Below, in pieces: positions 44,583-48,897 of a stretch of DNA of 64,000 bases. Made by a program: the position numbers and the translations under genes. The DNA is taken from the NCBI RefSeq assembly GCF_988243305.1, contig NZ_OZ547136.1, one strand, 5' to 3'. Position 1 is the stretch's first letter, and every line of letters begins with the position of its first letter. Under the pieces are notes generated by a model. The model was not told the origin of the DNA and ran no database searches. It worked only from the letters and a program-made list of their open reading frames with translations.

Positions 44583-45358
44583 TTTGCCGTTTTATCGACA
44601 CCCACTGCCATTTTGATTTCCCGCCGTTTAGTGGCGATGAAGAGTCCAGCCTGCAACGCGCGGCACAAGCGGGCGTAGGCAAGATCATTGTTCCGTCAAC
44701 CGAGGCGGAAAATTTTGCCCGCGTGCAGGCGTTAGCGGAAAAATATCAACCGCTGTATGCCGCATTGGGCTTGCATCCTGGTATGTTGGAAAAACATAGC
44801 GATGTGTCTCTTGATCAGCTACAGCAGGCGCTGGAAAGGCATCCGGCGAAGGTGGTAGCGGTGGGGGAGATCGGCCTGGATCTCTTTGGCGACGATCCGC
44901 AATTTGAGAGGCAGCAGTGGTTACTCGACGAACAACTGAAACTGGCGAAACGCTACGATCTGCCGGTGATCCTGCATTCACGGCGCACACACGACAAACT
45001 GGCGATGCATCTTAAACTCCACGATTTGCCGCGCTCTGGCGTGGTTCATGGTTTTTCCGGCAGCCTGCAACAGGCCGAACGGTTTGTACAGCTGGGCTAC
45101 AAAATCGGCGTAGGCGGTACTATCACCTATCCACGCGCCAGTAAAACCCGCGATGTCATCGCAAAATTACCGCTGGCATCGTTGTTGCTGGAAACCGACG
45201 CGCCGGATATGCCGCTCAACGGTTTTCAGGGGCAGCCTAACCGCCCGGAACAGGCCGCGCGGGTGTTTGACGTGCTTTGCGAGTTGCGTCCGGAACCAGC
45301 GGATGAGATTGCGCAAGCGTTGCTAAATAATACGTATACGTTGTTTAACGTGCCGTAG
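44579..45358 (+). CDS. yjjV: TatD-family metal-dependent deoxyribonuclease YjjV
   Basis: 259-aa ORF with the HCHFD motif; overlaps the yjjU stop by 4 nt. Confidence 0.9.
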   Translation: MICRFIDTHCHFDFPPFSGDEESSLQRAAQAGVGKIIVPSTEAENFARVQALAEKYQPLYAALGLHPGMLEKHSDVSLDQLQQALERHPAKVVAVGEIGLDLFGDDPQFERQQWLLDEQLKLAKRYDLPVILHSRRTHDKLAMHLKLHDLPRSGVVHGFSGSLQQAERFVQLGYKIGVGGTITYPRASKTRDVIAKLPLASLLLETDAPDMPLNGFQGQPNRPEQAARVFDVLCELRPEPADEIAQALLNNTYTLFNVP

Positions 45359-45360
45359 GC

Positions 45361-45445
45361 CGGACAAGGCGTTCACGCCGCATCCGGCAGTTGGCGCACA
45401 ATGTCTGATGCGACGCTTGACGCGTCTTATCAGACCTACAAGTCT
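45361..45445. repeat. REP (repetitive extragenic palindromic) element(s)
   Basis: CGGACAAGGCGTTCACGCCGCATCCGGCA ... GCCGTATCCGGCATG are canonical REP-type palindromes between convergent yjjV and yjjW. Confidence 0.55.
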
Positions 45446-45474
45446 GTGCCGAACCATAGGCCGTATCCGGCATG

Positions 45475-46338
45475 TTACAAATACAGCGCCGGGAATATTA
45501 AGCGGCTCACCCCGCGCTCCCGTAACGCATCAGCCAACGGCTCAACGTCTTCCGGCGTGGCGCTCGCCCAGCTTTGCGCCTCGCCATACACGCCGTGGGC
45601 ATGAAACGCGTTCAGGCGTACCGGAACATCGCCGACTCCCTTGATAAACGCCGCCAGTTCTTCGATGTGTTGCAAATAATCCACCTGGCCAGGGATTACC
45701 AGCAAACGCAGTTCCGCCAGCTTACCGCGCTCTGCCAGCAAACAGATGCTGCGCTTAATCTGCTGATTATCGCGTCCGGTTAATTGCTGATGACATTCGC
45801 TCCCCCACGCTTTGAGATCGAGCATTGCGCCGTCGCACACCGGGAGCAATTTTTCCCAGCCGGTTTCGCTCAACATACCGTTACTGTCCACCAGACAGGT
45901 GAGATGGCACAATTGCGGATCGTTTTTGATGGCAGTAAACAGCGCCATCACAAACGGCAGCTGGGTCGTGGCTTCGCCGCCGCTTACCGTTATCCCTTCG
46001 ATAAACAGCACTGCTTTGCGGATATGACGAAGCACTTCGTCCACGCTCATCAATTGCGCCATCGGCGTGGCGTGTTGTGGACACATCTTCAGGCAGGTAT
46101 CGCACTGCTCGCAGACTACAGCGTTCCACGCCACTTTGCCGTCAACAATCTGCAACGCCTGATGCGGACACTGTGGCACGCACTCCCCGCAATCATTGCA
46201 ACGTCCCATCGTCCACGGATTGTGACAGTTTTTGCAGCGCAGATTGCAGCCCTGCAAAAACAGAGCCAGACGACTGCCTGGCCCGTCAACGCAGGAGAAG
46301 GGGATAATCTTACTGACTAAAGCGCATCTGCTGTTCAT
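45475..46338 (-). CDS. yjjW: Glycyl-radical-enzyme activating enzyme-like radical SAM protein YjjW
   Basis: 287-aa ORF with the CxxxCxxC radical-SAM motif plus ferredoxin-like Cys clusters. Confidence 0.9.
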
Positions 46339-47860
46339 GGCTTATCACGCGCGGCTGGCGTTCCAGAATACGAGTGTTGCGTGCGGCCTCTTCGCCCAGC
46401 CAGGTGGTGTTGGTGCGTGAACCTTCGGCGCGATATTTTTCTAAATCCGACAAACGCACCATATAACCGGTAACGCGAACCAGATCGTTACCGCTGACAT
46501 TGGCGGTAAATTCACGCATTCCGGCTTTAAAGGCACCGAGGCAAAGCTGTACCAGCGCCTGCGGGTTACGTTTGATGGTTTCGTCGAGCGTCAGAATGTC
46601 GCTGATGCCGGAATAATAATAAGCATGATGCGGGGCGACAGTTTGCAGATGGGTGATCGGATCTGGCTCATCGCCATACGGCAAACGCGCGCCCGGCGTG
46701 GTGCCGATATCGGAACTGATCCCCGACTGTGCGTGTAACATGGCGCGTTTTTGCCAGCCATATTTCACGGGGGTATTGGCGACAAACTCCGCCAGTTGCG
46801 CGCTGATGCGATAACCCACTTCATTTGCGGCGGCTTCTTTACCGTAGCGCGCGGCAATCCCTTCTTTCTCACACAGTAAGTTAACTGCTTCCGCCAGCCC
46901 ATACATGCCAAACATTGGCACAAAACGTTCAGGGTTAATCAGCCCTTCTTTCACCAGGAAGCTATTCTCAAAGAAGTGTGATTGTTGATAGAGGAATTCA
47001 CACCGCGCATCGATGATGGCGATCTGCTGCTGGCAGTAGTGCGGTAGAGTGCGCGTAAAGAAGTCATCCAGCGATTCGCTGCGCTCGGCAATGGCTTTCA
47101 GGTTAAGGCGTACCAGCGTGCTGCCACCACCCGCCAGCGGCAGTGAGTTGTAACAGCTCACAATCCCGTAGCCCCCTTTTGTGAAAATTTTATCATGCAC
47201 CGGACCGTTGGCGATGTGCGGTTTGCTACATTCACAGATGTTCTTCGCCACTTCCAGCAGCAGGTCATCAGGGGTGATTTCAGGATCGTAGATAAAGGTC
47301 AGGTTCGGTGAAACCTGCTTCAGCTCTGCATCTGCACGTAAGATTGCACGGGTGATGGGCGAATCAGACGGGCCGATATTGGCGTGCATAAAGGCGTCTG
47401 GCAGGGTTCTGTCGAGGTAACGCCAGAAACGTTTTATTCGAATATCGATCTCGTCTTGTGTTAGAATTCTAACATACGGTTGCAACAACGCATCCAGTTG
47501 CCCCAGGTAGACCGGCATCGATGTGACCGACGGTACGTGGTGGTAAAGAATGGTCAGCAGAGAGAGTGCATCATCAAGATCTTTCGCGCCTTCCAGCTCC
47601 AGCCATTCGGAACCGTTCGCCAGAAAACGGGCGTAATCGGGTAAGACATAGCGCGGTTTGTACGGCGCATGACCTTCAAACATATCGCAGATTACACCCT
47701 CATCCAGCGCGCGGCGGGCTTCGGCAGGAAGCTGCGGATAAGGCAGATTGTTTTCTGCTTCCAGTGCCAGAAAATGGCGCTTCTGCTCCGGGCTAAGCAC
47801 TGGGCTGGTGACAATTTGCAGGCAACGTTGTTGCAGTGCATTTTCATGAGAAGTGGGCAT
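46310..47860 (-). CDS. yjjI: DUF3029 glycine-radical-enzyme-like protein YjjI
   Basis: 516-aa ORF matches recalled YjjI; overlaps yjjW by 29 nt. Confidence 0.9.
47458..47473. promoter_or_regulatory. DeoR operator-like perfect palindrome TGTTAGAATTCTAACA (candidate deo O1 / P1 region)
   Basis: Perfect 16-bp palindrome matching the DeoR operator consensus, exactly 600 bp upstream of a second copy. Lies inside the yjjI coding region. Confidence 0.55.
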
Positions 47861-48057
47861 CTTCTTTTCCTTTTATGCCGAAGGTGATGCGCCATTGTAA
47901 GAAGTTTCGTGATGTTCACTTTGATCCTGATGCGTTTGCCACCACTGACGCATTCATTTGAAAGTGAATTATTTGAACCAGATCTCATTACAGTGATGCA
48001 AACTTGTAAGTAGATTTCCTTAATTGTGATGTATATCGAAGTGTGTTGCGGAGTAGA

Positions 48058-48073
48058 TGTTAGAATACTAACA
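48058..48073. promoter_or_regulatory. DeoR operator-like palindrome TGTTAGAATACTAACA (candidate deo O2 / P2 region)
   Basis: 15 of 16 positions match the DeoR palindrome; about 45 nt upstream of the deoC start. Confidence 0.55.
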
Positions 48074-48117
48074 AACTCGCAAGGTGAATTTTATTGGCGA
48101 CAAGCCAGGAGAATGAA

Positions 48118-48897
48118 ATGACTGATCTGAAAGCAAGCAGCCTGCGTGCACTGAAATTGATGGACCTGACCACCCTGAATGACGACGACACCGACGAGAA
48201 AGTGATCGCCCTGTGTCATCAGGCCAAAACTCCGGTCGGCAATACCGCCGCTATCTGTATCTATCCTCGCTTTATCCCAATTGCTCGCAAAACGCTGAAA
48301 GAGCAGGGCACCCCGGAAATCCGTATCGCTACGGTAACTAACTTCCCACACGGTAACGATGACATCGACATCGCGCTGGCAGAAACCCGTGCGGCAATCG
48401 CCTACGGTGCCGATGAAGTTGACGTAGTGTTCCCGTACCGTGCGCTGATGGCGGGTAACGAGCAGGTTGGTTTTGACCTAGTGAAAGCCTGTAAAGAGGC
48501 TTGCGCTGCGGCTAACGTACTGCTGAAAGTGATCATCGAAACCGGAGAACTGAAAGACGAAGCGCTGATCCGTAAAGCGTCTGAAATCTCCATCAAAGCG
48601 GGTGCTGACTTCATCAAAACCTCTACCGGTAAAGTGGCAGTGAACGCGACGCCGGAAAGCGCGCGCATCATGATGGAAGTGATCCGTGATATGGGCGTAG
48701 AAAAAACCGTTGGTTTCAAACCGGCGGGCGGCGTGCGTACTGCGGAAGATGCGCAGAAATATCTCGCCATCGCCGATGAACTGTTCGGCGCTGACTGGGC
48801 CGATGCGCGTCACTACCGCTTTGGCGCTTCCAGCCTGCTGGCAAGCCTGCTGAAGGCTCTGGGCCACGGCGACGGTAAGAGCGCCAGCAGCTACTAA
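48118..48897 (+). CDS. deoC: Deoxyribose-phosphate aldolase DeoC
   Basis: Start at [24 protein letters not shown] (259 aa). Confidence 0.95.

Follow-up and report, generated by a model that had tools for sequence, protein, structure and literature searches.

What does a glycyl radical enzyme do beside the genes of nucleoside catabolism? This question is raised by the gene pair yjjI-yjjW, found in a 64,000-nucleotide stretch of contig NZ_OZ547136.1 (assembly GCF_988243305.1), from now on referred to as the window. RefSeq names the two products 'YjjI family glycine radical enzyme' and 'YjjW family glycine radical enzyme activase', and the pair is flanked by the convergent gene yjjV downstream and the divergent operon deoC-deoA-deoB-deoD upstream. 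The gene pair itself, its family models and its control by FNR are already known. YjjI is a core, FNR-activated radical enzyme of Escherichia coli K-12 that still has no assigned reaction. An earlier note on this DNA called the substrate undefined, in agreement with all papers found; none of them assigns a function to YjjI-YjjW, and the sole proposal is a role in 'nitrogen metabolism' (PMC3228777). We propose, at a probability of roughly 0.55, that yjjI-yjjW is an anaerobic two-gene glycyl-radical system of nucleoside catabolism, its substrate being a ribonucleoside or a pentose or pentose phosphate derived from one. Adjacency to deo alone had served as a hint in the earlier note; comparative data now suggest the nucleoside link as the leading hypothesis.

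Family assignment, residue conservation and structure prediction strongly support YjjI being a compact 516-residue glycyl radical enzyme built on a ten-stranded barrel, with G465 located in an RVTGY loop. YjjI scores 732.6 bits against PF11230 (cutoff 23) and 787.8 bits against TIGR04040 (cutoff 498.3), E. coli YjjI and YjjW being the namesakes of PF11230/TIGR04040 and TIGR04041. The family has few members: when 1.84 billion cluster representatives were searched exhaustively, 540 proteins matched at E<=0.001, of which many are fragments, and some 25 full-length clusters remained at 50% identity. Conservation was analyzed in two alignments, one of YjjI homologues at 27-90% identity (A1) and one of distant members only (A2). 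G83, G120, D123, H159, C236, E305 and G418 are invariant in A1, with A2 in agreement. S235, Y237 and N238 come close to invariance in A1; so do R462 and G465, which show no variation at all in A2. C236 is the sole invariant cysteine of the family in both alignments. Profile alignment of the YjjI family with pyruvate formate-lyase (PFL) places 'YGIVSCYN' on 'YAIACCVS', so that C236 corresponds to C419, and 'VRVTGYLVK' on 'IRVSGYAVR', so that G465 corresponds to G734. Alignment with the class III ribonucleotide reductase NrdD of E. coli by hhalign matches C236 with the thiyl cysteine C384 at a probability of 57%, which is supportive, not conclusive. Searched alone against the sequences of solved structures, YjjI gave chance matches only (E ~1), and the family profile reached PFL at E 6e-4. 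The AlphaFold model, built from a 26-sequence alignment, is confident, with a mean predicted local distance difference test score (pLDDT) of 91.5 and a predicted template modelling score (pTM) of 0.91. Foldseek comparison of this model with the PDB ranked class III ribonucleotide reductases on top, led by Prevotella copri 8p2s_B (E 4e-18, template modelling score 0.75) and including the phage T4 and S. thermophilus enzymes; PFL-type enzymes follow and are nearly as similar. The pair thus combines an RVxG[FWY] loop, a conserved loop cysteine, a ten-stranded α/β barrel and an adjoining CX3CX2C activase. The earlier reading of a glycyl-radical-type enzyme with its activase is thereby borne out by curated families, the RVTGY motif, an aligned cysteine, the predicted fold and the cluster motif of YjjW.

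Older annotations treated YjjI as one of two familiar enzymes, namely a class III ribonucleotide reductase that has diverged or a keto-acid formate-lyase of the PFL type. Older structure predictions matched an NrdD subunit and HI0521 had been labelled as homologous to pflB (PMC3228777), both NrdD and PFL rank in the top group of structural matches of our model, and distant YjjI-family members yield faint Pfam NRDD and PFL-like matches. YjjI indeed resembles NrdD in having a glycyl radical loop near the C-terminus, a C236 that aligns with C384 and a dedicated radical S-adenosylmethionine (SAM) activase, and NrdD acts on a ribose ring, fitting the nucleoside context of YjjI. However, with 516 amino acids against 712, YjjI falls about 200 residues short of E. 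coli NrdD, and it lacks both the ATP cone and the C-terminal four-cysteine zinc site, its C-terminal third holding one cysteine only, C439. No equivalent of NrdD C175 is found in YjjI, N174-C175 falling into a two-residue gap after YjjI R70-Y71 in the same hhalign alignment. Further, YjjW bears two extra ferredoxin-type clusters that the 154-residue NrdG lacks, and the neighbors of yjjI are catabolic genes. Similarities to the PFL-type enzymes (PflB, PflD, YbiW, CutC, IslA, HypD and the glycerol and propanediol dehydratases) include cysteine and glycine loops that align with the YjjI profile as well as activases to which YjjW is most similar, and PFL-type enzymes are anaerobic and catabolic. 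They differ from YjjI in that YjjI is 250-350 residues shorter, E. coli YjjI has no PF02901 match, and Ser235-Cys236 stands where PFL has Cys418-Cys419. Glycyl radical 1,2-eliminases (the dehydratases, CutC, IslA and HypD) carry a Cys-x-Glu motif on the cysteine loop, with the general base two residues past the cysteine, whereas the YjjI loop reads Cys236-Tyr237-Asn238 and N238 is conserved. Pfam finds only PF11230 in E. coli YjjI, the ATP-cone, NRDD and PFL models remaining unmatched at E<0.01, and E. coli already possesses nrdDG. An identity of YjjI as a divergent NrdD or a keto-acid formate-lyase is therefore very improbable. The model instead suggests a minimal glycyl-radical barrel roughly equidistant from both known branches and slightly nearer NrdD, and by its sequence features YjjI is most plausibly placed as a separate minimal branch of the superfamily that lacks what defines NrdD, PFL and the eliminases. 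Surveys based on the PFL-like domain family (IPR004184) take NrdD as outgroup, and one of them leaves YjjI unmentioned (PMC11528403); YjjI has been overlooked because it lies outside this domain family, which underlies most surveys.

For YjjW, motifs and family models strongly support an assignment as a radical-SAM activase that carries a single SAM cluster plus two auxiliary clusters of ferredoxin type. YjjW scores 396.1 bits against TIGR04041 (cutoff 250.2), and its next-best family models are those of other glycyl radical enzyme activases, namely the hydroxyproline dehydratase activase and the PFLE_PFLC subfamily, both at E ~1e-40. The first ferredoxin-type motif consists of C47/C50/C53/C57 and the second of C76/C79/C82/C86.

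Genome neighborhoods carry the proposed link to nucleosides. Two sets of loci were compiled. The gammaproteobacterial set contains 80 species-level loci, the best 80 matches of a genome scan, all from Gammaproteobacteria. The distant set was obtained by scanning metagenome contigs with an alignment of distant members and comprises 90 loci grouped into 38 lineages at 70% YjjI identity; neighboring open reading frames (ORFs) were clustered without prior labels and the resulting families then named by Pfam. The activase is the commonest yjjI neighbor in every clade examined, being present at all 80 gammaproteobacterial loci and in 31 of the 38 distant lineages. The next most common distant neighbors are the parts of an ATP-binding cassette (ABC) transporter: a two-domain ABC ATPase (14 of 38), BPD_transp_2 permeases (10 of 38) and a Bmp/PnrA-like substrate-binding protein (9 of 38). 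They are followed by an IU_nuc_hydro nucleoside hydrolase (6 of 38), a PfkB kinase (5 of 38), a PNP_UDP_1 phosphorylase (4 of 38) and a LacI-type regulator (3 of 38). The YjjI proteins of these distant relatives are about 36-45% identical, and one of the distant lineages belongs to Ilumatobacteraceae/Actinomycetota. Among 110 predicted same-strand operon partners from 26 lineages, the top Pfam families were ABC_tran (9), Bmp (8) and BPD_transp_2 (6), so that Bmp leads the substrate-specific families. Of the 28 lineages having at least 5 kb of flanking sequence, 12 carry one or more nucleoside-specific genes. Single look-ups of two distant members found nucleoside hydrolase, ADP-ribosylglycohydrolase-like, PfkB, phosphorylase and Bmp genes around yjjI. 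One operon (L175) also encodes a DeoC aldolase, an adenosine deaminase and a phosphopentomutase-type (deoB-like) protein, and its phosphorylase passes the curated uridine phosphorylase cutoff; in a second locus (L131), the neighboring kinase passes the ribokinase cutoff.

The host operons in many distant lineages are Bmp/PnrA nucleoside ABC transporter operons with hydrolase, ribokinase and phosphorylase genes, in which yjjI-yjjW is embedded. E. coli differs in having no such transporter beside yjjI, and to our knowledge these transporter operons have not been described with a radical enzyme. The yjjI-activase pair can be located before or after the transporter operon and often lies within it, for example in the order phosphorylase-Bmp-YjjI-activase-ATPase-permease-permease, and this variety of gene orders argues for a linkage that was retained repeatedly. 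Several further arrangements were observed. In two lineages (L115, L117 and L140), yjjI lies in a Bmp transporter operon (Bmp-YjjI-ATPase-permease-permease) without an adjoining activase gene; the activase of such loci may be encoded elsewhere or shared. In L012 (positions 3806-5341) and L013, a sulfatase/phosphodiesterase-family protein of the alkaline-phosphatase superfamily is encoded directly upstream of yjjI on the same strand, preceded by nucleoside hydrolase, ADP-ribosylglycohydrolase-like, PfkB kinase and phosphorylase genes. The gene of a further YjjI homologue, P0146 (L096, a contig of GCA_024449855.1), directly follows and adjoins a BPD_transp_2 permease gene; its translation under code 11 does not yield the protein, pointing to an alternative genetic code, for example the one used by Mollicutes. 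A link to queuosine, based on tgt, queA and QueT near yjjI in a few lineages, was set aside, as these genes co-occur with ruvAB in a common housekeeping cluster.

Within Gammaproteobacteria, deoCABD is the divergent neighbor of yjjI throughout Enterobacteriaceae, Hafnia and Edwardsiella. Gilliamella shows a different arrangement on a single strand, with deoB-deoD furthest upstream, followed by adenosine deaminase, cytidine deaminase and pyrimidine nucleoside phosphorylase genes and then yjjI-yjjW, some loci also having a 5'-nucleotidase gene ahead of the pair. Neighbors at loci without nucleoside genes include LysR regulators, LysE, a chemoreceptor and an IdnR/GntR-like regulator. The LacI-type regulator adjoining yjjW in Aliivibrio was considered as a possible CytR and rejected, being closest to IdnR/GntR. 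A Proteus mirabilis locus (L059, 5945-10366) has the order serB(-) smp(+) yjjI(+) yjjW(+) with no deo genes. In E. coli K-12, smp and serB presumably lie a few genes past deoD; if this order holds, a deoCABD-yjjJ-lplA block would have been inserted between smp and yjjI in enterobacteria, or lost or moved in Morganellaceae.

If the pair works as all glycyl radical enzyme systems do, YjjW would reductively cleave S-adenosylmethionine and the resulting 5'-deoxyadenosyl radical would take a hydrogen atom from G465. The G465 radical would then be passed to C236, whose thiyl radical would take a hydrogen atom from the substrate. Judging from the neighborhoods in several lineages, this substrate would be an imported ribonucleoside, or a pentose or pentose phosphate obtained from it, processed alongside the deo pathway. 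Conserved Arg, Lys, His, Asp, Glu, Asn and Gln residues are abundant in YjjI (A1, A2), which appears compatible with a sugar or sugar phosphate substrate. The reaction may be redox-neutral and resemble the first half of the ribonucleotide reductase mechanism, with hydrogen abstraction beside a hydroxyl of the ribose ring and loss of the neighboring hydroxyl to give a keto-deoxy pentose. Such an elimination is favored over a net reduction because the fold is closest to that of ribonucleotide reductase and the reducing cysteine is missing. It is the most speculative part of the proposal, and we consider it doubtful. We likewise think it unlikely, if conceivable, that YjjI founds a third glycyl radical branch beside NrdD and the PFL-type enzymes that performs a new radical dehydration or elimination on the ribose of ribonucleosides or ribose phosphates.

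The same neighborhoods are equally consistent with other chemistry in nucleoside catabolism: radical cleavage of the glycosidic C-N bond (compare choline trimethylamine-lyase), a net formate-dependent reduction of a ribonucleoside or ribose phosphate to a 2-deoxy form that DeoC can split, or a reaction on the base. The similarity of the YjjI fold to ribonucleotide reductase and the presence of DeoC, encoded in the L175 operon and by the divergent neighbor in E. coli, would agree with these alternatives, and the polar residues D123, H159, N238, E305, H376 and Q378, invariant or nearly so, and the nearly invariant R70, R251 and R392 could serve any of these options. However, a net reduction of the NrdD type needs a second cysteine, and with C175 falling into the gap by R70-Y71 no other conserved cysteine is available. 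In the PFL branch, eliminases acting on C-N and C-O bonds rely on a Cys-x-Glu loop, where YjjI has Cys-Tyr-Asn, and the operons in question already encode hydrolases and phosphorylases that split the glycosidic bond. We therefore regard these other reactions as quite improbable and retain a radical step on a ribonucleoside or a pentose derived from it as the working proposal.

yjjI also shares regulatory DNA with deo. Searching the window for the DeoR operator consensus gave exactly two perfect matches, O1 and O2, which lie 599 bp apart. This spacing equals the published distance between deoP1 and deoP2 (PMC3334521). O1 is located 386 nucleotides into yjjI and supplies the codons of V129-R-I-L-T133, part of a variable loop. 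A candidate third operator, OE, has a 3-mismatch match at the same +665 position in Superficieibacter, and we take its 279-bp spacing to be the one given by Dandanell et al. 1987. The earlier note's claim that yjjI shares regulatory DNA with deo was thus right and in fact understated, O2 being intergenic and O1 lying within the yjjI coding sequence. Each of the 17 genera examined in which deoCABD is divergent, ranging from E. coli to Hafnia and Edwardsiella, keeps the O1 palindrome at +380/+386 of yjjI. In Proteus, Providencia, Gilliamella, Aliivibrio, Vibrio, Shewanella and 'Xenophilus', whose yjjI does not have deo as divergent neighbor, the gene lacks the palindrome. The arrangement matches the known deo control region, in which deoP1 and deoP2 are controlled by DeoR looping among O1, O2 and OE as well as by CRP and CytR: the palindrome spacing is exact and the CRP sites correspond to motifs from chromatin immunoprecipitation sequencing (ChIP-seq). 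It differs from usual descriptions, which leave out yjjI, in that O1 and OE are placed in the yjjI reading frame. As O1 lies inside the yjjI coding sequence, so does the promoter deoP1, and deoP1 transcripts therefore run antisense to the first ~400 nucleotides of yjjI and cross the yjjI promoter. An additional CRP-type site (tgtgaccgacggtacg) is located at 47522-47537, again within yjjI and some 50 bp downstream from deoP1/O1. This site, which could act on deoP1 or on yjjI, matches the motif of a CRP ChIP-seq peak reported 'within yjjI' for enterotoxigenic E. coli (PMC4287617).

A footprint alignment of the yjjI-deoC intergenic region across 13-14 genera (A4) reveals, counted from deoC, the conserved blocks O2, a CRP site, the CytR region and a second CRP-like block, then a variable stretch, followed by GGATCAAA and TACAAT/TACACT. 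The last two elements represent a candidate yjjI promoter. Of the candidate FNR site, only the promoter-proximal half GGATCAAA (47921-47928) is conserved in A4, and a search of the intergenic region for the full FNR consensus TTGAT-N4-ATCAA with up to 2 mismatches returned the deoP2 CRP site as its sole match. The assignment to FNR is made because the conserved half-site has the correct spacing and published chromatin immunoprecipitation (ChIP) data agree; we consider the element a candidate class II FNR promoter in which the promoter-proximal half-site alone is kept. An FNR ChIP peak has been published for yjjI, which is classed with operons under direct FNR activation (PMC3688515); our own conversion between genome versions puts this peak about 93 bp upstream from the yjjI start codon. 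In addition, yjjI and yjjW are both tabulated as FNR-activated (PMC2634741). In Yersinia intermedia growing without oxygen, yjjI was upregulated 4.3-fold and yjjW 2.1-fold (PMC3792023).

Expression data also give rise to the main competing explanation, namely that YjjI-YjjW is a genuine glycyl radical enzyme with its activase that is unrelated to nucleosides and belongs, for example, to a nitrogen- or nitrate-linked pathway, the deo and transporter linkage reflecting shared ancestry or chance. A co-expression study biclustered yjjI with narG and other nitrate genes sharing FNR-like and NarL-like motifs, which is the origin of the 'nitrogen metabolism' proposal and places yjjI among nitrate-respiration genes (PMC3228777), and a transcriptome study grouped yjjI with respiration genes (PMC6643234). 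Several further observations weigh against a role in nucleoside catabolism. Nucleoside genes are not near yjjI in many lineages, being absent from its vicinity in Proteus and Providencia (Morganellaceae), Vibrionaceae, Shewanella and 'Xenophilus', in an actinobacterial lineage and in 16 of the 28 distant lineages with adequate flanks. The Proteus pair adjoins smp-serB without deo, so that the adjacency seen in E. coli could stem from rearrangement. Lineages defined at 70% identity are not fully independent, and inheritance may account for some of the linkage. Some Bmp-family binding proteins take ligands other than nucleosides, and the closest NCBIfam model of a Bmp neighbor, far below its cutoff, is that of a putative vitamin B6 binding protein. 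Antisense transcription from deoP1 could mean that yjjI and deo are expressed antagonistically, not together. The chemistry proposed above relies solely on the missing second cysteine and the fold similarity, YjjI being by its model almost as PFL-like as NrdD-like. No experiment on YjjI or YjjW, including detection of the glycyl radical, was found in the literature searched.

On the other side, shared control by FNR explains the co-expression of yjjI with nar genes. Nucleoside genes recur in at least four gene orders and in distant sequence clades, often in one same-strand run. Genomes carry few Bmp operons, and co-location of Bmp with yjjI in 9 of 28 lineages is very unlikely to result from chance, the expected background in the low percent range being a rough estimate and not a computed control. 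A function unrelated to nucleosides thus appears unlikely, and involvement in nucleoside catabolism remains the preferred interpretation.

The features of the locus are compiled in Table 1. The deoC start codon (ATG at 48118) lies on the strand opposite to yjjI, and the two start codons are separated by 257 bp. The ORF list confirms exactly the 29-nucleotide overlap of yjjI and yjjW claimed earlier. The yjjW ATG at 46338 is the first start codon past an in-frame TGA TAA, with no alternative start codon upstream of the conserved N-terminal IPFSxVDGPG motif, and the overlap is therefore independent of annotation choice. Overlaps of 29 or 26 nucleotides occur in all Enterobacteriaceae as well as in Hafnia, Edwardsiella, Proteus, Providencia, Gilliamella and locus L014. 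Most Vibrionaceae have a gap of 3-45 nucleotides at this junction, and most distant lineages show overlaps of 1, 4 or 8 nucleotides, with small gaps also occurring. The two genes are tightly linked and it is safe to assume that they are co-transcribed. No good Shine-Dalgarno sequence precedes the yjjW ATG, and together with the overlap this makes translational coupling from yjjI to yjjW a reasonable inference.

Table 1 Features of the yjjI-yjjW locus and the adjoining deo control region, with window positions.
Feature	Position	Strand	Basis and remarks
yjjI coding sequence	46310..47860	minus	516-residue YjjI-family glycyl radical enzyme; ORF list, translation, PF11230 and TIGR04040, RefSeq
yjjW coding sequence	45475..46338	minus	287-residue radical-SAM activase; ORF, translation, TIGR04041, Radical_SAM, Fer4_12 and ferredoxin-type domains
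Overlap of yjjI 3' end and yjjW 5' end, 29 nucleotides	46310..46338	minus	ORF coordinates and sequence
Glycyl-radical motif, codons R462-V-T-G465-Y466	46463..46477	minus	A1, A2; aligns with PFL 'IRVSGYAVR' holding G734
Cysteine loop, codons S235-C236-Y237-N238	47147..47158	minus	A1, A2, PFL and NrdD alignments; DNA agc tgt tac aac
Radical-SAM cluster motif, codons of YjjW C31-x3-C35-x2-C38	46225..46248	minus	Translation; Radical_SAM and Fer4_12 matches
Two CX2CX2CX3C ferredoxin-like motifs (auxiliary clusters), YjjW C47-C86	46081..46200	minus	Translation; Fer4_9, Fer4_7 and Fer4 at residues 44-90
DeoR operator O2, overlaps deoP2 -10 (TGTTAGAATACTAACA)	48058..48073		Exact pattern; conserved in A4; intergenic
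DeoR operator O1, overlaps deoP1 -10 (TGTTAGAATTCTAACA)	47459..47474		Exact palindrome; inside yjjI coding sequence
Candidate DeoR operator OE (tgtgaaaattttatca)	47181..47196		Sequence; inside yjjI coding sequence, 279 bp from O1
CRP site of deoP2 (TGTGATGTATATCGAA)	48025..48040		Sequence; A4; CRP ChIP-seq motif for yjjI/deoC (PMC4287617)
Candidate FNR site, yjjI promoter (cgcatcaggATCAA)	47921..47934	minus	A4; FNR ChIP peak (PMC3688515); FNR-activated listing (PMC2634741)
Candidate -10 hexamer TACAAT, yjjI promoter	47894..47899	minus	21 nucleotides downstream of FNR half-site; TACAAT/TACACT nearly invariant in A4

The DNA of the window is that of E. coli. A 3.4-kb query around yjjI-yjjW matches 5425 of 5426 complete E. 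coli genomes, 5422 of them at 80% coverage or more, and the best identity is 98.8%. No complete E. coli genome of the collection exceeds this identity over positions 45000-48400 of the window, indicating a lineage that is not represented there. The query matched a median of 6 places per genome, probably because of a repetitive extragenic palindromic (REP)-type element (…tgtaggtctgataagacgcgtcaagcgtcgcatcagaca…) at 45380-45470, which occupies the gap between the convergent genes yjjV and yjjW; this gap measures 116 bp here and 419 bp in K-12 MG1655. A terminator-like hairpin with a T-run (GGGCCAGGCAGTCGTCTGGCTC TGTTTTTGCA) is located at 46263-46284 on the minus strand, inside yjjW directly past the overlap, and spans conserved codons. 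It probably arose by chance, since the terminator scan found 4 sites compared with 3.3 in shuffled sequence; the generic scan for sigma-70 promoters and terminators was uninformative, its matches not exceeding those in shuffled sequence. Elsewhere in the window, a weak match to the DeoR operator pattern fell on a fragment of three tandem tRNA-Leu(CAG) genes (37245-37567, minus strand), which are consistent with the E. coli leuV-leuP-leuQ cluster.

Glycyl radical enzymes have repeatedly been found behind important anaerobic and gut reactions such as the breakdown of choline, hydroxyproline and isethionate. What is added here for YjjI is the location of deo operators and deoP1 in the yjjI reading frame together with their lineage-specific conservation, a conserved candidate yjjI promoter, the placement of YjjI as a putative separate minimal branch of the superfamily, and evidence from multiple lineages that ties the family to nucleoside uptake and catabolism. 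One stretch of DNA serves two roles at this locus, a promoter of the neighboring operon and two repressor operators, one of them a candidate, lying within an oppositely oriented reading frame. Nucleosides and pentoses would become the class in which to look for a substrate, leaving only a few compounds, all of them on sale, and making this orphan enzyme testable. If radical chemistry on ribose should prove true, anaerobes including E. coli would gain a route for RNA-derived ribose into the deo pathway that bypasses the pentose phosphate pathway.

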